Below, piece after piece: positions 7,101-38,894 of a DNA stretch of 51,123 nucleotides. The DNA is from a virus (Duplodnaviria > Caudoviricetes): positions 1-51,123 of the IMG/VR virus record IMGVR_UViG_3300023218_000251, one strand, 5' to 3'. A model generated the notes under the pieces. That model saw only the letters and a list, made by a program, of their open reading frames with translations, did not search any database and was not told the origin of the DNA. Every line of letters starts with the position of its first letter. The first letter of the stretch is position 1. A program made the translations under genes and the position numbers.

Positions 7101-9324
7101 CCTCCGCCAGCTCCTTGAACGTGCGAAGGCGCGCCTCGACCACGGCGCGCTCGCGGCCTTCGGTCTGCAGGAGCGCGGCCTGCTCCGTCTGGGACGCGAG
7201 CTGACCCTGGAACGCCTCAAGCTGCTGCTGGCGGGCATCGGTCGTGGCCTCGGTCGCCTGCGCCACGCCCTGCTCCGTCTTCAGCAAGCGCTGGAGGACG
7301 CTCTCCAGCTTTTCCTCCTGCTGGAGCCGGTCGGCGAGCGCCGCGGTGACCTGCTGAGTCGAGGCAGCCCGCTCCAGGTCGAGTCTCTGCCGGACGCGCG
7401 CAAGGTCGGCGTCCGACAAAGAGCCAACGAGGCGCTCCGCCTCCTGCTCGGCCTGCACGCGTCCGATGGCCTGAGGGCCACCGGCGCGCCCTGCGGCCAC
7501 CTGCTCTTCAATCTGAGCGATGCTCTGCAGGGTTTTTTCGATCTCGTCGCGGGCCTTGCGGCTTTCTTCCGTGATCCGAAACTCACCCAGATCGGCATCG
7601 GCCTGCGACAACGACTCCAATGCCGACTCAAAGACCGAGATCGTCTGCGTCGTCAGCTCCAGATTTGTGCGCGCCTGCGTCGCCTGCTCGCCGATCAGAC
7701 CGCCCAGGACCCGCTCGAACCCCTCGCGCCGGGGGTCAATCTGCGCCTGGAGTTCTTCGCGCTCTTCGCGCAGCAACTCCAGGCGTCGCCGAATCTCTTG
7801 TTCGTTGCCCTCCTGGGCCAGACGCCCGGCCGCTGCCACGTCGCTCAGCAGCTGGGCGCGACGCTCCAAGGCCTGAGTCTCCTGCTCAAAGGCCGTTCCG
7901 CCCAGCACCGTTCCAAGCCGACCCTCTTGAAACGCTCGCCTTCTCTCGATTTCGTCGGCCAGATCGCGGATCTCGTTGCGCAACGACCGCAGGCTTTGAT
8001 TTTCGAGATCCGCAAAGATCTGGGCGAAGTCGGCGAAAAAGACGATGGCCTCCTGGAGCTGCACTGTCATCTCTTCAAACGCCGGCGTGAAGTCGGCAAA
8101 CACGGCCAGCGCCGTCGCCGACAGCTGCTCCTTCAGGAGATCCATCTGGTTGGTGGCGCGTTCGGCCTCGGCCACCGTCTGCCGGTCGATGATGAGCCCA
8201 AGCTCTCGAAACCGCTGTCTGCTGTCCTCCAGCTCCGCGTTGGTCTCGCCCAAGACGTTGGCGAGCCGGATGAATCGCCGGCTGAACAGATCGGCTGCGA
8301 TGCCCGCGCGCTCGACACCCGAAACCGTCTCGTCGGTCCTCTCTACGACCTCGCGGAATGCGCTCTCCACGTCGAGCCGCTGAAGGTCCTCCAGCGTAAG
8401 TCCGAGGCGCTCGAACGCATCGCGCGCCTCGCCCGTACCCTGGCGCGCTTCCGAGAGCCGCCGTGCGAAGGCCTCCAAGCCGCGGTCGATGTTCTCCACG
8501 CCGCGCTCGAGGCCGATAAACCGAAGCTCTTGCAAGAACTCGACATCCACCCCCACCGCACGCGCCTGCTTGCCCAGATCATCAAGCGAACGGGCGGCGC
8601 GGGAGACGGCGGTGACGAAGCCTCCGACCGCCAAAAACGCCGCGCCGGCCGCGATCACGCCCTTGGTCAGGCGGCTCATGCCGCCTTGAGTCTCTTCGAC
8701 GAGGCTGTTGACGGCGAGCAGGCGGGCGCCCACCCCAGACAACGGGCCGAAGGCGAGAACGGAGAAGCTGCGGGAGAGCTGGCCGACGTTGGTGCGAAGG
8801 CCCGCCATGTTCAGCCGCAAATCGCGGGCATTCACCGCTTGAGTGGAGAAGGTCTCGTTGATCCGTCCGCCCGCGTTGCGCACCCGCTCCTGAACCCGCA
8901 CGAGCCTTTCCTGGACGTTGACCGTCTGTCCGAGAGCTTCCCGCTGCCGGATCAACGCGCGCTCCCGTTGGGCGAACGCACGATTCTCGTCGCCTAGCGT
9001 CGAGAGCAGGGTGAGGGCGGTGCGAAGCTGTCTTTGCTGGACTCGGGTCGAGTCCTGGCGCGCGGCCGTCGCGCGGCGCGTGGAATCCGCGACCTGGCTG
9101 GTCGCGCGCGCCTGATTCTGGAGGGCCTGGTTTTGGCGGGAGAGATCCGCGGTCTGCGCGCCGACGCCGGGGCCGCCGCGGATCGCGGCCATTGCCCGGG
9201 CCACCTGCTGCATCGCCTGGGCGAGCTGCGTGGCCTCGCGGCGGCTGCGCTCTGAGCCGCGGACGAATTGACGAAAGCCCTGCTCGGCCGGTCGAGCGTC
9301 GACATCGAGGCGGACCGACGGCAT
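4132..9324 (-). CDS. Tail tape measure protein
   Basis: 1730 aa, Ala/Glu/Gln/Arg-rich helical sequence with Gly-rich hydrophobic segments; follows the chaperone pair. Confidence 0.92.
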   Translation of the reverse strand: MPSVRLDVDARPAEQGFRQFVRGSERSRREATQLAQAMQQVARAMAAIRGGPGVGAQTADLSRQNQALQNQARATSQVADSTRRATAARQDSTRVQQRQLRTALTLLSTLGDENRAFAQRERALIRQREALGQTVNVQERLVRVQERVRNAGGRINETFSTQAVNARDLRLNMAGLRTNVGQLSRSFSVLAFGPLSGVGARLLAVNSLVEETQGGMSRLTKGVIAAGAAFLAVGGFVTAVSRAARSLDDLGKQARAVGVDVEFLQELRFIGLERGVENIDRGLEAFARRLSEARQGTGEARDAFERLGLTLEDLQRLDVESAFREVVERTDETVSGVERAGIAADLFSRRFIRLANVLGETNAELEDSRQRFRELGLIIDRQTVAEAERATNQMDLLKEQLSATALAVFADFTPAFEEMTVQLQEAIVFFADFAQIFADLENQSLRSLRNEIRDLADEIERRRAFQEGRLGTVLGGTAFEQETQALERRAQLLSDVAAAGRLAQEGNEQEIRRRLELLREEREELQAQIDPRREGFERVLGGLIGEQATQARTNLELTTQTISVFESALESLSQADADLGEFRITEESRKARDEIEKTLQSIAQIEEQVAAGRAGGPQAIGRVQAEQEAERLVGSLSDADLARVRQRLDLERAASTQQVTAALADRLQQEEKLESVLQRLLKTEQGVAQATEATTDARQQQLEAFQGQLASQTEQAALLQTEGRERAVVEARLRTFKELAEVEIDRRLELARVAGEQAGALFDLNEERRREQEAQEGLASLLENEAQLRERVAAQAQGGAAAVAEVEALQEARELVGQLSEEQQEAITQGTQLEGLVGDDLVAAVADVIQEQETLNDRLRQSNDAGRAFEEALIQAARNIQTAFADTFLEIFDNGIDGFGGFADRVLDIFKSLAAEIAALLIFRPVVGGVLNATGLSGIAQQLGLAAIGAGGGGGGASGGGIASSLAQTLGLQSVLGGSGGGAGGAGGGGLLGQALGGVFGPIQQGIGSIAQAIGIGGPSPNVTISQPGPGSPSILAPPGNLNVQGSTAAAGLGLLQSLGASVLGFGAGGAIADALGLGDLNGQQSLGGSIGGGVGAVAGAIGGTILGGPLGGGIGAAVGRIIGETAGATFQAVATGQNPFDVQSNSEFRRGIVGAGRGAVLGSTAATFTGLSFLGPVGAIAGALLSIFGGDPSKAEGRLGGPLGSPVGLGDVPSEFADTVAQIDRGISRFLDPDEIARINQRLASRPGLREDFRRFDNEASTLVADRLSRIFEQIAIDAGREDLLRVKGTFGKARLSEAFVVNAFLPAVEQFAEDAGITFDKARKSFFKNPEVSLPRFSEEVQEFLATRRDVTARINQALEPLPPMQTQAEAEFLDTLDEINEGFDELTENAEKFLVAEEELAKIEQGRALAIDRLGQDLLGQVDEQILAIRDPLAVALSDLREEMDGLRRTADELGVSVASIDELERLSAQQIVAQAVGLDPSRDFQAQIDALLNEAQDPLGQALADLGRQFETLRENADLLGISLASINELEAIRARQLIDQQTGLSQTIEQGEQRQEQALPLAEQFRQAQAEFERLRPLAFGGDVQAIGDFVDVAQQLLSLNEQLFASSAERFERDQFILQTLRNLEALLPQNLEGFQTGGSFTLPPSQGFENPVAFRASAGETVTISTGSLEDQVAGVSRTVALSSASEQDELRQLRRELRELRESNERLARTVERLVQRERSVA

Positions 9325-9702: not shown

Positions 9703-10097
9703 AGGCTCTCGTCCTCGCCCTCTCGATCGGCCTCCGCCATCTCGGTGGCCGCCTGGTAGACGGCCTGGAAGAACGGGAGGAAGGCGCCGTCGGGATCGTC
9801 GGCCCACTCCTCGGCCATCGTCCGGTCGAAGGCGATGGCGGTGCCGGCATCCTCCACACCCTTCCAGTCCTCGAGGCAGGCGGTGACCGAGCGGACGTTG
9901 GCCAGCGCCGCTTCGGTCCCGCTCCACCCCTTGCGAAGCTGCTTGGGCTTGAGCCGGGAAAGCTGCTCCTGGCGTCGGCGATAGGCCTTGCACTCAGTCG
10001 ACTTGAGCTTGACGTTGATCCCGCGGAACCGCTCGTCGTAGTCCCCGAGCACCTTCCACTCGGTTCGCTCCACGTCAATCGCGATGTTGAGTCCCAT
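9672..10097 (-). CDS. Tail assembly chaperone (gpG-like)
   Basis: GGAGG SD plus ATG (MGLNIAID...); lies between the tube and tape measure genes; 'LEDWKGVED' motif. Confidence 0.8.
   Translation of the reverse strand: MGLNIAIDVERTEWKVLGDYDERFRGINVKLKSTECKAYRRRQEQLSRLKPKQLRKGWSGTEAALANVRSVTACLEDWKGVEDAGTAIAFDRTMAEEWADDPDGAFLPFFQAVYQAATEMAEADREGEDESLGNSEPPSTG
9696..9702 (-). promoter_or_regulatory. Programmed -1 ribosomal frameshift heptamer G GGA AAC
   Basis: XXXYYYZ heptamer in the correct phase near the 3' end of the chaperone gene (CTG GGA AAC). Confidence 0.8.
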
Positions 10098-10216
10098 CCT
10101 CCAGAGTCCTGCCCCGGTCCGCCCAAGGGTCGGCCTTGCGACGGGGAGCGTTGGTCGACAAACGCCAGCGGATGACGGGCACTGGCCAACCCGAAGAAGC
10201 TCAGACGGGAACCGGA

Positions 10217-11434
10217 TCAAAATCTATCGATTTGACCACTAATTCCCGCACTGTCGGCCTCCGCCGACCAGCTCGCCTGCGCCTGGACCGTCTGGTCGTT
10301 GCCCTGGGCCGGGTCGGTCGCATCGGTGATCCGCACCCGCTTGAAGCTCACGAGCTGGCGGCGCGTGCCGTCGTCCAGCAGGTAGGCGAGCTTTGTCAGG
10401 TTCTGGTCCTCGTACAGCCGGATCAGGTCCGCGTTCTGCATGAAGACGTTGAACGAGCCGTCGAGGGTCGGCGTCCCGATGCCAATGTCGGGCGGCCCCT
10501 GCTCGCCAATCGCGAAGTCTCGCCGCGTCTGGTTGTTCAGGGTGTGGGCGATCTCCGCCACGCGATCCGAGGTGATGCCGGTGAACGCACCTTCCATAAT
10601 CCAGTTGATGTGATCGACGGCATTGAGCCGGGGGGTCGCCCACTTAACGGTTTCGGAGCCGCCCGTCGACGTCGCCTGCGTCGTGTCCTGGAGCTTGCCG
10701 TCGAACTGGAACACCTCGCTGATGATGCCCTGGGGGTTCGTCGTGCGCTGCCAGCTCTGGACGCGCATCCCGGTGTAGAGCGAGAACTCGACAGGCGAGA
10801 GATCCGTCCGCTGCTTTTCGATGGCCACCGAGCGCTTGACGTTGCCAATGCGCAGCATGGATCCCTTGACCGTGACCGCCTGGTTGGCCTCGGCCGTCAC
10901 CGCATCGCCATTGGACCGGACGCCCTCGCAGGAGAGGTCCGCATCGCTGTTCTTGGCCAGCACGTGCGCGTAGATCGTGCTGTTCGTCCCGAATCCCGAG
11001 ACCTCGATCCACTGGCCCGCCACGACGTCGGCAAACGCATCGGCCGACACGTCGTTGTCGATTAGGTCGAACGTGCCGCCCACGACGCTGGTGATGGAGA
11101 CGTCGGGCTCCGCGTTGTTGATGATCGTCGTCCAGTCGTTCATGTAGGCGCTGGCATAGAGCAGGTCGAAGCCACGTGTGGCTCCGCCGGGAGACGCGAT
11201 GTCGACGGGCGTGACGAGCGACGACTCGACGTTGATCGGACCCTCCGCCGCCTTGTTGATCGGCACCTGGCCGGCGGGCTGGCGGTTGGCGTCGATCTCG
11301 CCGCTCTGAACGAATCCACGGGCGAGCTTCAGCGCCTCGCTGTTGAACCGGAGAAAGTCGAATCCCGCTCCCGGATTCACCCCGAACGTCGCCTCGGGGG
11401 CAATGGCGATCCGAACAGAGCTTGCGTCGCCCAT
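10217..11434 (-). CDS. Major tail tube protein
   Basis: 405 aa, 'IAIAPEATFGVNP...LRFNSEAL...SGEI' N-terminus typical of tube proteins. Confidence 0.85.
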   Translation of the reverse strand: MGDASSVRIAIAPEATFGVNPGAGFDFLRFNSEALKLARGFVQSGEIDANRQPAGQVPINKAAEGPINVESSLVTPVDIASPGGATRGFDLLYASAYMNDWTTIINNAEPDVSITSVVGGTFDLIDNDVSADAFADVVAGQWIEVSGFGTNSTIYAHVLAKNSDADLSCEGVRSNGDAVTAEANQAVTVKGSMLRIGNVKRSVAIEKQRTDLSPVEFSLYTGMRVQSWQRTTNPQGIISEVFQFDGKLQDTTQATSTGGSETVKWATPRLNAVDHINWIMEGAFTGITSDRVAEIAHTLNNQTRRDFAIGEQGPPDIGIGTPTLDGSFNVFMQNADLIRLYEDQNLTKLAYLLDDGTRRQLVSFKRVRITDATDPAQGNDQTVQAQASWSAEADSAGISGQIDRF

Positions 11435-25120: not shown

Positions 25121-25249
25121 GCGGAGGGCCGGGCGGTGGCCCCGAGCCAGGCGGAGACCGACCTGGCCCGGGGCAGGGGAGAGCAGGGGTCGGTGCGCCA
25201 ACACCCCGCTCGGAAAGGCCCCCAGGATCTCTCTCCCGGCCGCTCGGCG

Positions 25250-25471
25250 TCAAGAGGGCCTTGTGGTTTCGCCGGTGCGGCCCGTGGAACGCTGGGCGAT
25301 CAGGGCGTCGACGTCGGCCCGCGGTATCCGCCACCAGCCGCGGCGGCCGCGCCGCCAGGCATTCGGCAGGCGGCCTTGGCGAAGGAATTGGCGGATCCGC
25401 TCCTCAGAGACCCCGAGCTGGCGGGCGACCTGAAAAACCGACATGGGATTCATCCTGGGTTCGTTGCTCAT
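25250..25471 (-). CDS. HTH_17 excisionase-like DNA-binding protein
   Basis: 'MSVFQVARQLGVSEERIRQFLRQGRL...WRIPRADVDAL'. Confidence 0.85.
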   Translation of the reverse strand: MSNEPRMNPMSVFQVARQLGVSEERIRQFLRQGRLPNAWRRGRRGWWRIPRADVDALIAQRSTGRTGETTRPS

Positions 25472-26019
25472 TTGGCTGGCTCTCGCGGAAGCCACTTGAA
25501 CGTGTGCAGAACCCGGTGATCCTCGAGCGCCGTCCTCTGCGTCCGCGCGATGTTCGGCACGCCGAACAGGCCGAACAGCTCTTTGTCATGCGACTCCCAG
25601 GAGGGTCGATCCCATCGTTCATCGGTCGCCACCGTCTCGATCTCGACGCACTTGATCGGCACGGACAGTTTTAGCCGGTAGACGTCCAGCGTCGCGTTCA
25701 ATGTGACCCTCGAATCTCCGCGCACGACGATCTCCGAGCCGTAATTGATGTTGCTCGTTTCCACTTCCACCTCGTCATCGCCAAAGCGACGCCCTTGCGG
25801 ATAGGATTCTCCAGCATCGAGGCTCAGCATGTGGCCCACGGTCCTAGAGACGATCGCGGGCACGGCCTCCAACTCCCAGCACACGATCCGCAGCCATGCG
25901 ACGTGCCGATCCCGTCGAAGCCAGATCACACATTTCGTCACGACGATTTTCTCGGGCCAGGCAGTGCCGTCCAGCAAGAGGTCGATGTCGGCCCCATTGA
26001 GCTTCTTGGGTAGGTCCAT
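25468..26019 (-). CDS. Hypothetical protein
   Basis: GGAGGAAGG SD before MDLPKKLNG; 183 aa; ATGA coupling to the next gene. Confidence 0.75.
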   Translation of the reverse strand: MDLPKKLNGADIDLLLDGTAWPEKIVVTKCVIWLRRDRHVAWLRIVCWELEAVPAIVSRTVGHMLSLDAGESYPQGRRFGDDEVEVETSNINYGSEIVVRGDSRVTLNATLDVYRLKLSVPIKCVEIETVATDERWDRPSWESHDKELFGLFGVPNIARTQRTALEDHRVLHTFKWLPREPAK

Positions 26020-26047
26020 GGTTGTCCTTCCTCCGGGTTGAAGGGAG

Positions 26048-26153
26048 GGCGGCCCCGGCGACGCATGCGGGTTGGGCAACATGCCCGATCTGGTCGCCGG
26101 GGCCGCCGAGGCGGACACCGCCCGCCTGGGTCACACTGCTACATTGGTCCGCC
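26048..26153 (-). ncRNA. Two TIGR-like stem-loop guide units (stem-CCA-N9-TG-N3-CCCA-N9-YG-stem)
   Basis: Unit 1, 26153-26110: GGCGGA CCA atgtagcag TG tga CCCA ggcgggcgg TG TCCGCC. Unit 2, 26107-26048: perfect 14-bp stem enclosing CCA gatcgggca TG ttg CCCA acccgcatg CG. Both cores are exactly 32 nt. Confidence 0.75.
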
Positions 26154-26454
26154 GCCAAGCCTGCCAGAGGTCCTTCAACATTCGCTTCTCGACCTTCCTC
26201 TGCGCCCGCCGGTGGATCTGGCCCTTGGCCATGTAGGCTTCGGGATTCGTCCGCGGGATCTTGCTGCTTGGCCGGATCTCTCGCCCCGCCGCCCGCGCCT
26301 TCTCCTGCTCGTGAGCCTTGAACGCGTCGTACAGGCTGCGGTAGGGCCCCTTCCCCCGCACCGCCGCAGCCTCTCCGATCGTAAACATCACCGTGCGTCG
26401 CGCGGACGAGTAGCCCAGCTCTAACAGCTCGGGCTGGGTGATGCGCTTGCGCAT
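26131..26454 (-). pseudogene. C-terminal fragment of an IS110/Nop-domain (Tas-like) RNA-guided protein
   Basis: 'GYSSARRTVMFTIGE...GPYRSLYD..K...KGQIHRRAQRKVEKRMLKDLWQAW' matches the C-terminus of phage IS110-like/Tas proteins as I recall them. The 5' part is replaced by the CRISPR array. Confidence 0.7.
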
Positions 26455-26461
26455 CGACTCC

Positions 26462-27198
26462 CTTTGCGCCAAGTAGAGGAGATACACCGATGCGATTCAA
26501 GGTTCTGTTGCAAGTACGAAGCCCCTGCACTGGCTTTGCGCCGTACGTGCGCAGCCCCCCTTCCTCGACTCGGCTGTATGTTGCAAGTACGAAGCCCCTG
26601 CACTGGCTTTGCGCCCTTGACGCCGCGCTCGATCGCCTCGTAGGACTCGCGTTGCAAGTACGAAGCCCCTGCACTGGCTTTGCGCCGGTCGCTGCGCGCG
26701 TCGAGGCGGCGCTGGCCGGGGAGTTGCAAGTACGAAGCCCTTGCACTGGCTTTGCGCCGCCGACCGTCTCCCCGAAGAGCGCCCTCCCTACGTCCTGTTG
26801 CAAGTACGAAGCCCCTGCACTGGCTTTGCGCCGGGCGTCTCCCAGCGCACGCTCGAGCGCGCCCGCCGGTTGCAAGTACGAAGCCCCTGCACTGGCTTTG
26901 CGCCGTCTTCAGCCGCGTCTTGTCGCCGGTCGTGCGATGGAGGTTGCAAGTACGAAGCCCCTGCACTGGCTTTGCGCCTCCCCGCCTTCCGCGAACAGCT
27001 CCGCCGGCGCCGGCGCACGTTGCAAGTACGAAGCCCCTGCACTGGCTTTGCGCCCTCTCCGAGCTCGAGGGTTGCCTCGCCCCGCTCGCGTTGCAAGTAC
27101 GAAGCCCCTGCACTGGCTTTGCGCCCCCTCGAGCGGCGCATCCACGAGGCGACTCTCGAGCAGTTGCAAGTACGAAGCCCCTGCACTGGCTTTGCGCC
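26462..27198 (-). CRISPR. CRISPR array: 10 full 36-bp repeats (GGCGCAAAGCCAGTGCAGGGGCTTCGTACTTGCAAC), a 9-bp truncated trailer repeat and 10 spacers of 35-40 bp
   Basis: Repeats start (plus strand) at 26507, 26580, 26651, 26723 (1 SNP), 26797, 26869, 26943, 27019, 27090 and 27163. The remnant ctttgcgcc is at 26462-26470. Orientation inferred from the 3' TTGCAAC end, the cas gene and the degenerate end. Confidence 0.98.
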
Positions 27199-27311
27199 CC
27201 GGGCGGTGTAACTCCCCGGCTCCAGACACGTTTTGAGACCACTCGCGAGTGGTGCCGTCGATCTCCCACGCCGCACCATTCCTTCTCCATCCTGCGCTCG
27301 CACCTTATCGG
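27199..27311 (-). promoter_or_regulatory. CRISPR leader region
   Basis: 113-bp non-coding gap between the effector stop codon and the first repeat. Confidence 0.6.
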
Positions 27312-29024
27312 CTATCCTCGCTCCAGACCAGTTTTTTTCGACGTGCGAGCGGTCGCCGCCTCGTCCTGACAGACCCCACCGCTCGCCCCGAGCATGGACT
27401 CCAGAGATTGGCCCGCCTGGGCCGGCTCCGCGGTACCCCCTCGCGCTCGGAACGCCCACACGATCGCCTCCCGGAGCTCGCCCGGAGCAGCCACGGTTCG
27501 TTGACTCTGACTCACATCTGATCTCTCTTCATAGCGGTCGCTCTCGGGAGCCGGCCGTTTCGCCATCTGGCGCAAGTCCAAGTCGTCCATGATCACGGTC
27601 CCATAGCGACGCGCCAGTGTCGCCGCCACATTGCGAAACACATGCTCGCGACGTTCGATTGCCTTGCGCCGCGCGTTGGCCTCCCACTCCCAGAGGTGAT
27701 AGTCCCGCCTCACGTAGGAGGCAAGATAGGCGGCGATCGCATCGTCGTCTCCGAGAAGATTCTGGCTCCACCATCGCGACAGTCCGACCAGCCTCCGGGG
27801 CGACCTCCATCGCCCCATGTGTGCCACCCGCTTCCTATGCTCCTCCGACAGCTTCGCGTGGCGGAGCATCGCCGCAAGCGCGTCCAGCGCCGCGTTGAAG
27901 TGGTCATCCCGCAATGAGCGCAGCTCTGCGGCCTTCGCAAGCTGCCCAACCACCCCGGGTGGGACGACCACTGTCCCGGACCCGCCATCATCTCCCTGCC
28001 ATCGTGCGACTTCGACGGTCACTGCATCGTCGGCTACGGCCCGGCGCCACCCGAGATCGACGGCCACACGACCACGGCCACACGTCTCCGCGCACCACGT
28101 CGCGGGCATCTCCACCTCGAAACACACATGCCACCGCACATGACCGGCCACTCGGCACGATACCACGCGCACCCACTTCACCCGCGCTTCGAGAGGAATG
28201 TCCCGGTGCCAGACAAGCGGCCAGATTGCGAATACAGGATCTCGCCCCTCCGATCCGACTCGCAGACGGAGGGTGCCATACCTCCGACCCTGACGACGCG
28301 GAGCGGAATCGAGGTCGAGCTGCACGAGTCTCCGAGCCGCGCGCGCATCCTCCCCGTCGCCCAAGATGTCCGACATGCTGTAGCCGTTTCGCTCGCCCCG
28401 AGACTGCAACTGCACAGACAGGCTACCCGACCCATCGAATCTTCTGTATCGCGGCGGCGGGCCCTTGCGAAACTGATCCTTTGCCACCCGCATCCATGCA
28501 CAGCGCGTGCCCCAGTAGAGCCCCTGCGTGCCGTAGTCGCCGTAAACGTCCTTCGCCGCCTTCCGTGCGATCTCCTCCACCTCGCGGAGCCGATCCTTCG
28601 CGGAATCCGTCTTGCGCGCCGACTTCTCCCGATCTCGGAGGTGCTCCCACGCCCGCGCGAGCTCAGCCCGGATCCGGTCGGTATCGTCCTTTCCATCGGG
28701 ACGTTGCTTGCGACGCCGAATGCCCGAACGCTCAGACTGAATCGCATCGCGTACCAGCTCGAGCTGTTCCTCCAACTCCCGGACTTCTTTCCATGCAAGG
28801 GCAACGTCCGAGTCGCAGTCGGCGAGCGCGTCATGATAGGCCTGGCGACGGGCACGTTCGATCTCTACGAGTTTGTTGCGATACGTGTGGCCCAGCCTGA
28901 GCTGGTGACGCGCCTTCTCGATCGTGTCGGCCTTGTCCTGCCACTTGGTCTCTGAGAGCGCGGGCAGTCCGTATTTGTAGACGCGCGTTGTCAGTCCCTC
29001 TCTCCCATCGGGTCGCCGTGTCAT
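27312..29024 (-). CDS. cas12m: Type V CRISPR effector, Cas12m-like (V-U1/C2c4), predicted nuclease-inactive and C-terminally truncated
   Basis: 570 aa next to the array. N-terminal 'RVYKYGL...QLRLGHTYRNKLVEIERARR', 'GLYWGT', 'RFDGSGSLSVQLQ', RuvC-I 'VAVDLGWR', RuvC-II 'VIMDDLDL' (E to D), 'AAPGELR'. No zinc finger or RuvC-III Asp after that. Confidence 0.85.
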   Translation of the reverse strand: MTRRPDGREGLTTRVYKYGLPALSETKWQDKADTIEKARHQLRLGHTYRNKLVEIERARRQAYHDALADCDSDVALAWKEVRELEEQLELVRDAIQSERSGIRRRKQRPDGKDDTDRIRAELARAWEHLRDREKSARKTDSAKDRLREVEEIARKAAKDVYGDYGTQGLYWGTRCAWMRVAKDQFRKGPPPRYRRFDGSGSLSVQLQSRGERNGYSMSDILGDGEDARAARRLVQLDLDSAPRRQGRRYGTLRLRVGSEGRDPVFAIWPLVWHRDIPLEARVKWVRVVSCRVAGHVRWHVCFEVEMPATWCAETCGRGRVAVDLGWRRAVADDAVTVEVARWQGDDGGSGTVVVPPGVVGQLAKAAELRSLRDDHFNAALDALAAMLRHAKLSEEHRKRVAHMGRWRSPRRLVGLSRWWSQNLLGDDDAIAAYLASYVRRDYHLWEWEANARRKAIERREHVFRNVAATLARRYGTVIMDDLDLRQMAKRPAPESDRYEERSDVSQSQRTVAAPGELREAIVWAFRARGGTAEPAQAGQSLESMLGASGGVCQDEAATARTSKKTGLERG

Positions 29025-29554
29025 GCTGCCTCCTCGCCGTAGACCTCACGATAGATCGCATCGAAGTCTTCCTCGCACAGCGTCTTGGAGCACGGATCGC
29101 TCGGCCGCGAACGCCTTTTCTTGCGTTCTTCAAGAATGCGCTCGTGAAACTCTGCGGCCAGTCGATTGCCCGTCTCGTTCTTTCGGTGGAGATCAATCTG
29201 CGCGCGCAGCTCTTGTTCGGTCGCGTCGTGGAGCGGACGACCGCTCCGGAGCGGCCACGCGCCGACCCGCCAGCGAACGACCACATCCAGATCGTCCGCC
29301 AACGCATCCTCTGACGTCGGGATGTCACTCGTCGTGTCGGTCCCCCGCCGGGATCGTGCTCGGAGTCCGCGGCTGTGGCGCATCTGCTCGTGAATCAACA
29401 CCCATGCGGCAAAATGCACAGCAATGTCAGCACGCCGTGTTTGGCGAATCGCGGTCGCAAGCTCACTGACAGCGGTTGTGTCCACGGTTTCGAGCTTCTC
29501 CCAGATCTGTCTTGCGAGCTTTCTAAGCGTCGAATACGAGCTATGTATCTCCAT
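29021..29554 (-). CDS. Hypothetical phage protein translationally coupled to the Cas12 gene
   Basis: AAGGAG SD; ATGA overlap with the effector; 'WPLRSGRPLHDATEQEL...GNRLAAEF' motif. Confidence 0.8.
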   Translation of the reverse strand: MEIHSSYSTLRKLARQIWEKLETVDTTAVSELATAIRQTRRADIAVHFAAWVLIHEQMRHSRGLRARSRRGTDTTSDIPTSEDALADDLDVVVRWRVGAWPLRSGRPLHDATEQELRAQIDLHRKNETGNRLAAEFHERILEERKKRRSRPSDPCSKTLCEEDFDAIYREVYGEEAA

Positions 29555-29630
29555 GTGCGTCTCCTTCGTTCCCGCTCTCGTTGCTCACCGCGGCCCATCC
29601 GCGGCGAATGTTTGTCTTCTCCGTGCGCCG

Positions 29631-29975
29631 CTAGGCGCGTTGACTGTCCATCCAGTCCTCGACCTCACCGCGCTCCACCGTCCAGTGGCCGGCTTCGTCC
29701 CGGCGAGCCGTCGCAAACGAACCCCGGCGGCACCGCAGGCGGATGGCCTCGCTCGACACGTGTGCGAGCCGCGCGGCCTCGACCGAGGTGATGCGGCGCG
29801 ACCGGGCGGGCTGGGCCGGGGGCGGAGGGTCGACGATCGGACCGAACTGGAGCGCCGTGCACCGGGCGCAACGGGCCGGGCGGCGCCGACGGCCTCGAGC
29901 CTGCGCCCAGCGGCGGATCGGGCAGCCGCAGTCGTCGCATTCGCCGGCAATCGTCATCACAATCGTCTGCTCCAT
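29631..29975 (-). CDS. Zn-finger + HTH_17 DNA-binding protein
   Basis: CxxC...CxxC followed by 'ITSVEAARLAHVSSEAIRLRCRRG...GHWTVER'. Confidence 0.75.
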   Translation of the reverse strand: MEQTIVMTIAGECDDCGCPIRRWAQARGRRRRPARCARCTALQFGPIVDPPPPAQPARSRRITSVEAARLAHVSSEAIRLRCRRGSFATARRDEAGHWTVERGEVEDWMDSQRA

Positions 29976-30187
29976 CACCCCCTCCTCCGGTCGGTCGTCT
30001 CGTGATTCGGTCGGCGCGTGTCGAGTCGACGTCGTGGTCGCCAACGCATCCGAAAGGCATCGCAGCGGCATCCCTCCAGCTCACAGGCGAACGCATATCC
30101 GATGTGGCGATAGCGCGGATGGTCGCAGTGGGTGCACGGCTCGTGGCGGAGATCATCGGGCGGGTGGACGGCGCCCTGCAGCTTCAT
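29975..30187 (-). CDS. Small Cys/His-rich protein (paralog A)
   Basis: 'DLRHEPCTHCDHPRYRHIGYAFACELEGCRCDAFR'. Confidence 0.65.
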   Translation of the reverse strand: MKLQGAVHPPDDLRHEPCTHCDHPRYRHIGYAFACELEGCRCDAFRMRWRPRRRLDTRRPNHETTDRRRG

Positions 30188-30282
30188 GTCCGCACCCGGC
30201 GCCAGGGACGATCGCGCCACGGCGATCGGGCCCAGCGTTGCATCAACGAGTCGCAGTCGACGCAGCGGCCGGCCAGGATCAT
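30184..30282 (-). pseudogene. Truncated duplicate of the Zn-finger N-terminus of 29631-29975
   Basis: MILAGRCVDCDSLMQRWA vs MTIAGECDDCGCPIRRWA; ATGA-coupled on both sides. Confidence 0.5.
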
Positions 30283-30479
30283 GGGCATCCAGGACTGGCG
30301 CGCGGCGCCCGGGCCGGCTTCGCGCGGGGGCTTCGCCGCTGTCTCCACGTCGTTCGGAAGCTCTCGCATCGACATTCCTTCTCTTCGCAGGCGAACGCGT
30401 AGCCCACGTGGCGATCCCGGGCGTGGCCGCAGCGCTTGCAGGGCTCCTGCCGCAGATCGGCCGGCAGCCGAGGCGTCAC
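30279..30479 (-). CDS. Small Cys/His-rich protein (paralog B)
   Basis: 'DLRQEPCKRCGHARDRHVGYAFACEEKECRCESFR'. Confidence 0.65.
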   Translation of the reverse strand: MTPRLPADLRQEPCKRCGHARDRHVGYAFACEEKECRCESFRTTWRQRRSPRAKPARAPRASPGCP

Positions 30480-31237
30480 AGCGAGCAAACACGGCAACGA
30501 TGCTCGGGACCGCCGAACAGCTCGCCCTGCCCTGCTGCTTTCGGCCGGGCGCCCGCCTCGAACCGCGCTCGCAGCTCATGGAGACTCGCCGGCCAGGAAT
30601 CGCGTTGCTCCGAGCGAAACGTGTGCACTCTGCCTCGTTGCTCGGTCACATATCGCTCCAGAGCGGCCATCTTTTCGTATTCTTCCGGCGCGTCCTTCCA
30701 AAGCTCCCACCATTGTCCCAGCCGTTGCCAGAAGCAGCCCAGGCAATCGGTGCGCTTGGGGATGGTCACGTTGCGTTCGCGCAAGTAGTCCGTCACCGCG
30801 CGGATTCCCCATCCCCACTCGCGCATTGGAAACCGCATCGTCACGTTGGGAAGATGGTCGTAGATGCCACCGGGTCGCTCGGGCTCATCGGCCCGCAGCC
30901 CGACATAAGAGACCACCGGACCCTCGTGCGCATACTTGGCGAGGAATTGCTGATAGGGCTCGATCTTGAGCATGCGCGTACACCAACGAGCGCGGTGATT
31001 GGGGAGCATCTGTTGGCGACGAATCTCCCCTTGCAAACTGCGACCCGCCGTCAAAGGAAGTATCGGCTGACCCAATCGGTCGCTGAGACTCTTCCAGTGC
31101 TCGATCATGTCGTCGTGTTCGTTGCCGGTCGGCGTGCAGACGTAGATGTATTCGCGCGGCTCGACTTCAGCGAGGCGCAGGGCCATCGCAGACGAGTCTT
31201 TGCCGCCGGAAAGCGCCACGATGTGAGTCGTCGTCAT
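30476..31237 (-). CDS. PAPS reductase-family (PP-loop) protein
   Basis: 'HIVALSGGKDSSAM', 'RWCTRMLKIEP', 'VGLRADEPER', 'RTDCLGCF'. Confidence 0.9.
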   Translation of the reverse strand: MTTTHIVALSGGKDSSAMALRLAEVEPREYIYVCTPTGNEHDDMIEHWKSLSDRLGQPILPLTAGRSLQGEIRRQQMLPNHRARWCTRMLKIEPYQQFLAKYAHEGPVVSYVGLRADEPERPGGIYDHLPNVTMRFPMREWGWGIRAVTDYLRERNVTIPKRTDCLGCFWQRLGQWWELWKDAPEEYEKMAALERYVTEQRGRVHTFRSEQRDSWPASLHELRARFEAGARPKAAGQGELFGGPEHRCRVCSL

Positions 31238-38811: not shown

Positions 38812-38847
38812 GTCGCAAAGCCAGTGCGGGGGCTTCGTACTCGCAAC
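38812..38847 (+). CRISPR. Solitary CRISPR repeat (33/36 identical to the array repeat) followed by a short spacer-like segment and hairpin
   Basis: GTCGCAAAGCCAGTGCGGGGGCTTCGTACTCGCAAC; AAGCC/GGCTT stem intact; intergenic. Confidence 0.9.
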
Positions 38848-38894
38848 GGAAGAGAGCTTGCCGGGGCGGCCCGGCAACGAAACGGAGGTCCGTG

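Follow-up and report, generated by a model that had tools for sequence, protein, structure and literature searches.

Organization of the locus

This report concerns a hybrid RNA-guided locus in the IMG/VR virus record IMGVR_UViG_3300023218_000251, a stretch of 51,123 nucleotides (nt) that we call the window. At this locus, a Cas12m cassette with a CRISPR array (short palindromic repeats, clustered and regularly interspaced) runs directly into the 3′ part of a tas gene of the tandem interspaced guide RNA (TIGR) type. On the minus strand, the order is a gene for 177 amino acids (aa), cas12m, the CRISPR array with its 10 repeats, a stump of a repeat (9 nt), the last (3′) third of tas, and two units for TIGR guide RNAs (tigRNAs). 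A first-pass annotation, made by a model from the letters alone, had described this layout, and it was borne out element by element, in both position and strand (Table 1). The record is linear and about 79% complete. It carries genes for terminase, portal, head protease, capsid and tape measure, along with tyrosine integrase and excisionase-like genes; the source virus is a tailed phage and likely temperate. The hybrid locus closes a series of replication-region genes on the minus strand.

Table 1. Features of the hybrid locus (positions in the window; L001 is a related IMG/VR contig)
Feature	Position	Strand	Basis or remark
Partner gene, 177 aa	29021..29554	-	matches profile of tas-upstream reading frames; stop overlaps cas12m start
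cas12m, short form, 570 aa	27312..29024	-	PDB sequence matches to Cas12m
Array leader	27199..27311	-	placed by position; aligns with L001
CRISPR array, 10 repeats of 36 nt and 10 spacers	26471..27198	-	repeats at 27198-26507
Repeat stump, 9 nt, GGCGCAAAG	26462..26470	-	left side of junction; identical in L001
3′ third of nuclease-less-type tas, broken at wedge motif	26131..26461	-	107-aa reading frame 26131-26454 from internal Met
Stem-loop tigRNA unit 1	26110..26153	-	boxes 26116-26147; overlaps tas stop codon
Stem-loop tigRNA unit 2	26048..26107	-	boxes 26062-26093; 14-bp perfect stem; z -5.2
183-aa gene behind tigRNA units	25468..26019	-	flank; membership in either system putative only

The junction between array and tas

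The last spacer of the array (36 nt, 26471–26506) is followed at normal spacing by GGCGCAAAG, the first 9 nt of the repeat, and the ATG of a 107-aa open reading frame (ORF) begins 7 nt after this stump. The IMG/VR contig L001, 96–98% identical to the window, agrees with it in the last spacer, the stump and the piece of tas. Its array contains four repeats, and three of its four spacers are unlike those of the window, the last spacer alone being wholly common to both. Further contigs derive from four runs of a single study (X1–X4), one of which may be the source sample. The junction is bridged with 0 differences by an X1 contig (25400–26536) and by an X2 contig (25791–26535), and with 3 differences by an X4 contig (26006–26500); the X3 contigs do not cover it. 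Misassembly, which the first-pass annotation had named as a danger, does not account for the junction. It is real, because L001 has it next to other spacers and because contigs from three of the four runs bridge it.

A shortened Cas12m and its array

The 570-aa ORF finds its best PDB sequence matches in Cas12m proteins (23vw over residues 40–524, E 2e-47; 8hhl, E 3e-25), which confirms an earlier Cas12m-like label; in NCBIfam it has only a weak C2c8 match (E 0.09). The RuvC-I aspartate is retained, an aspartate replaces the glutamate of RuvC-II, and both the RuvC-III aspartate and the zinc finger are absent. The 14 closest homologues likewise have neither zinc finger nor third aspartate. Set against canonical GoCas12m, with its three-residue RuvC site and zinc finger, the protein by its sequence belongs to a shortened Cas12m subfamily and not to the canonical form. 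Given the missing zinc finger and third aspartate, it is predicted to be non-cutting. Other members of Cas12m process their own precursor CRISPR RNA and bind double-stranded DNA (dsDNA) without cutting it (PMC11013384, available text). No cas1 gene was found in the record, so spacer acquisition would occur in trans.

The 36-nt repeat has a hairpin at its 3′ end, and the spacers are 35–40 nt long. Spacer 3 matches a co-occurring 8.8-kb contig with 2 mismatches, and spacer 4 a co-occurring 4.8-kb contig with 0 mismatches; an exact match of spacer 4 in IMG/VR was not found. For spacer 8, 34 of 35 positions agree with a stretch of the head-maturation protease gene of the phage itself (16238–16272, minus strand), as expected of a guide aimed at kin phages. 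Observations on the protospacer adjacent motif (PAM) comprise one protospacer flank, the 5′ TTC of the spacer 3 match, and the flank of the spacer 8 self-match, which is GGG and contains no TTN. Since spacers differ between strains and match co-occurring contigs, the array is likely live, with turnover of spacers from strain to strain. Spacer 1 of the window (27126–27148) and spacer 3 of L001 (5891–5913) are alike in their last 22–23 nt and differ at their 5′ ends, reflecting either overlapping protospacers or recombination between spacers.

The tas remnant and its tigRNA units

The 107-aa ORF matches the NCBIfam model TIGR_Tas_endo (NF052498) at positions 129–215 of 215 (E 9.5e-17, under the whole-protein cut-off) and has 738 homologues at E≤0.001. 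The hidden Markov model search that the first-pass annotation had proposed thus upholds its assignment of the ORF to Nop/Tas proteins. Among the best 149 of these, the median length is 333 aa, and 11 are shorter than 200 aa. In the 123 of 250–450 aa, all aligned, a median of 209 residues precede the window Met, which aligns inside the wedge motif, within conserved sequence after the KRMGL motif. Positions 1–186 of the 314-position tas profile are absent from the entire record, and there is no second tas piece in it. The gene is truncated, then, as had been claimed, though by about two thirds and not by half. The missing part, some 200 N-terminal residues, takes in the whole coiled coil together with the Nop domain's first half. 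Dimerisation of Tas on a single tigRNA goes through the coiled coil (PMC12045711, available text); with this element missing, the remnant is most likely dead, a relic of the gene. A longer-protein search for a close full-length tas relative gave 2 matches, at 49% and 41%, and viral scans with the Tas fragment, the 177-aa protein, Cas12m and the 183-aa protein returned the L001 contig only.

Both tigRNA units have the form CCA-N9-TG, a 4-nt loop, then CCA-N9-(T/C)G, and their stems measure 10 and 14 bp when one mismatch is allowed. They fit a CCA-only version of the TIGRFinder stem-loop rule (box C, 9 nt and box D, twice; loop ≤15 nt; stem ≥5 bp) and are the best two of 7 candidates on both strands. 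When the window was resampled 200 times under a first-order Markov model, a tandem pair with the same loop appeared 0 times. The two stem-loops with twin 9-nt segments noted in the first pass therefore pass a TIGRFinder-type rule; the accompanying expectation of tigRNAs of about 36 nt does not hold, as the units are of the stem-loop type of ~50–65 nt and not the 36-nt dual-repeat type. For comparison, we used 52 viral tas loci with 4,519 ORFs, 45 of the loci having at least 900 nt upstream. The same stem-loop units occur in 39 of these 52 related loci, and 113 of 157 units have the same 4-nt loop. A repeat near tas in one locus (L020) was considered as CRISPR and rejected, being a coding repeat. 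An Rfam search made in this analysis gave no match. No tigRNA target within 2 mismatches was found in 0.8 Mb of loci; one 3-mismatch site lies in the window.

A partner gene family upstream of both effectors

The stop codon of the 177-aa gene overlaps the cas12m start by ATGA. Among the 4,519 ORFs of the tas loci, the six best matches of the 177-aa protein all lie directly before tas (best E 7e-4). Conversely, a profile of tas-upstream ORFs built without the 177-aa protein matches it at E 2.6e-11, the sole match above threshold among 553 window ORFs. Iterations of jackhmmer from four seeds converged on 34–35 ORFs, and a member of the resulting family, which we call the partner, is present in 35 of the 52 tas loci and directly upstream of tas in 34. 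All three named phages with tas carry the partner in the same order (E 1e-18, 3.5e-4 and 1.7e-3); the cultured phages with partner and tas are Omega, Morrissey and RHph_X2_25. A tblastn search of cultured phages with one member, made regardless of neighbouring genes, found no partner locus.

The partner is also found with cas12m. Among 60 cas12m loci, of which 48 have 700 nt or more of upstream sequence, it lies directly upstream of cas12m in 3, all of one lineage (L058–L060), in which the cas12m gene is 39% identical to that of the window and tas is missing; indeed tas is absent from all 60 loci. The repeat of L058–L060 is alike at 25 of 36 positions, and these loci have the same ATGA overlap and the same C-terminal EEAA. 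The window partner scores 122–124 against their partners and at most 77 against tas-linked members, and the four cas-linked partners form one side of a branch (SH-like approximate likelihood ratio test, 87–88). The window copy probably arrived together with cas12m, since partner–cas12m–CRISPR is found as a module in a lineage that lacks tas, and the partners there are the closest. Of the earlier proposal that both systems had the same upstream partner, membership in a common family stands; that this copy was the former partner of tas is probably not the case, as it is closer to the cas12m-linked copies. The gene before cas12m in phage Rctr197k was also considered and is not of this family.

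The predicted structure of the partner is all-helical. It has no Pfam, PHROG or PDB sequence family, its stathmin matches being of the generic helix kind. An identity as TasParB was rejected, given the all-helical model and the absence of any ParB family from the Pfam matches of 26 members (E≤0.01). An ESM Atlas search gave no usable match, and Foldseek found nothing in the PDB at E≤0.001. The best hits in a wide structural search (best Z 7.8) were generic three-helix matches, homeodomains included, and BFVD gave as its best hits phage proteins without names and one from Omega, of 166 aa (E 0.59). A prediction of the partner–Cas12m complex scored 0.00, which decides nothing either way. The partner, a small helical protein, would most likely be a DNA-binding regulator or helper. 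One homologue, on a 104-kb contig (P0005), matches the window partner in its first 100 residues and then runs into sequence like an alternative frame of the upstream helix-turn-helix (HTH) gene, which points to another rearrangement at this slot.

Origin of the junction

We consider it probable that the junction arose by module-for-module exchange, in which a partner–cas12m–CRISPR module was joined to the tail end of a module of the order partner–tas–tigRNA. The first-pass annotation had one system replacing another; an exchange between modules agrees better with the evidence than a simple overwrite behind one retained partner. The partner–cas12m–CRISPR module probably predates the junction, since the same module occurs without tas in L058–L060. 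The join was likely made by a single illegitimate crossover, inside the CRISPR repeat on one side and inside tas on the other, between phages using the same operon slot; whether the cas12m phage or the tas phage was the recipient, the same sequence would result. The outcome would be a likely live Cas12m silencer next to a likely dead Tas remnant. If it behaves like characterised Cas12m (PMC11013384, available text), the silencer would process its own CRISPR RNA (crRNA) and bind dsDNA beside a 5′-TTN PAM. It would then act as a non-cutting roadblock that keeps kin phages and other mobile elements from being transcribed or replicated, with spacers presumably supplied by the host Cas1–Cas2. The partner may serve as a DNA-binding helper or regulator for either effector.

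Several observations weigh against this account. The remnant frame is open, with GGAG 3 nt before the Met, and the tigRNA boxes are intact. The window and L001 remnants differ by 1 synonymous and 2 non-synonymous changes, a number too small to reveal decay. The searches retrieved no relative that has a whole tas at exactly this site, and L065, of the same Cas12m clade, has no partner in 5 kb of upstream sequence. In the tree, the branch of cas-linked partners carries no star and is flagged for joining long branches. As to the family itself, three locus pairs among the 52 tas loci are near-copies, and the four jackhmmer seeds were chosen from the 177-aa protein's own weak matches.

It is also conceivable, though unlikely, that both systems once stood whole in tandem in an ancestor, and that the second partner and the 5′ part of tas were lost in a deletion reaching from the last repeat into tas, a history of co-residence and loss in place of replacement. 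The same junction would result, and the truncation of both its ends is what a deletion would produce. However, neither tas nor partner is found in any of 12 other cas12m-bearing records, and none of 49 tas records contains a full cas12m (one 40-residue match, E 7.6e-6), many records in both sets being fragments. A working hybrid, in which one transcript yields both crRNAs and tigRNAs and the latter are used by the 107-aa piece or by a Tas from another element, is more doubtful still, and we regard it as quite improbable. The open frame with its possible ribosome site, the perfect box C/D units, the lack of a terminator-like site between array and units, and the recurrence of the junction in two strains are all compatible with it, as is an X3 contig with another spacer A at the unit-2 position (loose end at 26082). 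Yet that variant may come from a phage with a whole tas, no close tigRNA target turned up in the searches described above, and the window Met aligns internally, with the coiled coil and first Nop half gone. The earlier suggestion that both guide types act together is unsupported, because the Tas remnant has no dimerisation domain.

The two remaining explanations can be given very little weight. In one, an IS110 transposase had inserted into the array and left the 107-aa ORF behind as its remnant, and the hairpins would belong to a bridge RNA or be due to chance. The ORF does match PHROG 4285, 'transposase', at E 5e-13, and a Nop domain and box motifs are common to IS110 (PMC12045711, available text). 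Nevertheless, its only NCBIfam match is the TIGR-Tas model and it has no Pfam transposase or IS110 match (the N-terminus, and with it any DEDD/RuvC domain fused to Nop as in IS110, being missing), and the frequency of the same units and the same 4-nt loop in related tas loci counts against it as well; this highly improbable reading is largely refuted. The other, an assembly chimera at the CRISPR repeat, draws on the tendency of arrays to break assemblies and on the lack, in all four runs, of one contig covering the full 4.3 kb. With the same junction in L001 beside other spacers and substitutions, and with the bridging contigs from X1, X2 and X4, it is refuted as far as contigs can show, and is the least credible of the explanations considered.

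Relation to known systems

The module-exchange reading draws on parts that are already published, as is the functional likeness between TasA and type V-M: nuclease-less TasA represses transcription (bioRxiv 10.64898/2026.09.09.750476, available text), and type V-M is named as its likely functional parallel in the Discussion of PMC12045711. The window system resembles type V-M Cas12m (MmCas12m/Cas12m2, PDB 8hhl and 8hio; 23vw; GoCas12m, available text of PMC11013384) in sequence family, size, incomplete RuvC site, and 36-nt repeat with 3′ hairpin. The 5′ PAM is TTN in several type V-M members; a flank of this form is seen here at one protospacer (TTC) and not at the spacer 8 self-match (GGG). 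The window system differs in having no zinc finger and no RuvC-III aspartate, and in being phage-borne, without cas1, coupled to the partner, and with an array that ends in a tas remnant. Likewise, the tas side is like stem-loop TIGR-TasA (available texts of PMC12045711 and the bioRxiv paper) in the C-terminal part of Nop, CCA/TG(CG) boxes, twin 9-nt spacers, 4-nt loop, and a unit that overlaps the 3′ end of the gene; with about two thirds of the gene gone, it is a relic and not a complete member. TasParB accompanies dual-repeat arrays, and the partner described here is another family.

The closest parallel for a mobile tas module is a 2.2-kb insertion in mycobacteriophage Omega (L121, 785–2956), described in 2013 as an IS110-like transposon with a 5-bp duplication (PMC3706429, available text) and missing from Courthouse. 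It holds stem-loop units, gp22 (a weak partner-family match, E 1.7e-3) and gp21 (tas profile, E 2e-23) together, with a whole tas and no CRISPR. To judge from its sequence, the insertion is a stem-loop TIGR cassette with gp22 as partner and gp21 as tas, and the tas module therefore appears to move as a block.

What this locus adds is the probable physical scar of a swap, along with a partner family common to both effectors. We found neither a Cas12m–TIGR junction nor a non-ParB tas partner in the literature, where the family may yet be listed in supplementary material (fig. S14 and Table S1 of PMC12045711; TIGRSafari). Both TIGR papers (available text) leave open what nuclease-less TIGR-TasA does in nature, and with spacers of 9 nt its natural targets are difficult to trace. 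That role can be read indirectly from a locus where a CRISPR silencer, whose 35-nt spacers are readable, occupies the same slot with the same partner family; here, the spacers that could be traced are directed at DNA of phages and other mobile DNA. The partner occurs in cultured phages and in roughly two thirds of the tas loci sampled, and is a candidate for a missing component. We would suggest, tentatively, that this 170–200-aa protein is a shared, effector-agnostic part of non-cutting phage silencers (a co-repressor, loader or mobility factor) serving Nop-fold TasA and RuvC-fold Cas12m alike, and that the junction captures one guide system taking the other's place behind it; this is possible, and more doubtful than the exchange itself.

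Neighbouring genes and further observations

A 114-aa HTH gene lies upstream of the locus and the 183-aa gene downstream. The latter has no family match, and its sole viral relative is on the L001 contig. No promoter-like site was found within 25200–30200. Two genes upstream of the partner is a PAPS-reductase/DndC-like gene (30476–31237, minus strand).

Around the 183-aa gene, the X3 and X4 contigs represent sister alleles, with a common substitution at 26036 and divergence upstream (around 26062–26093). An X4 contig of 825 nt, joined at 26062 to the leader of the 183-aa gene, has 768 nt unlike the window upstream of that gene, a hint that these contigs come from sister phages with other alleles before that gene. 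An X4 contig also matches spacer 10 (26471–26506), after which other sequence replaces the stump; this is likely a protospacer or an alternative array end.

In L060, the array of 20 repeats contains one spacer in two near-identical copies (7272–7312 and 7851–7891), and spacers at 10051–10250 copy nearby sequence; together these features suggest duplication or an assembly artefact.

Finally, a solitary CRISPR repeat, 33 of 36 positions identical, lies in the window at 38812–38847 (plus strand), about 50 nt before an exonuclease VIII (RecE-like) gene. Its hairpin is preserved by a two-sided A-U to G-C change. L060 also has stray repeats, which lie just upstream of a gene of RecT-like appearance. 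The solitary repeat is possibly a handle for Cas12m on the mRNA of the recombination operon. A 14-nt motif stands beside the stray repeat in both phages (window 38852–38865, plus strand; L060 11496–11509) and occurs exactly in 1 of 120 loci.

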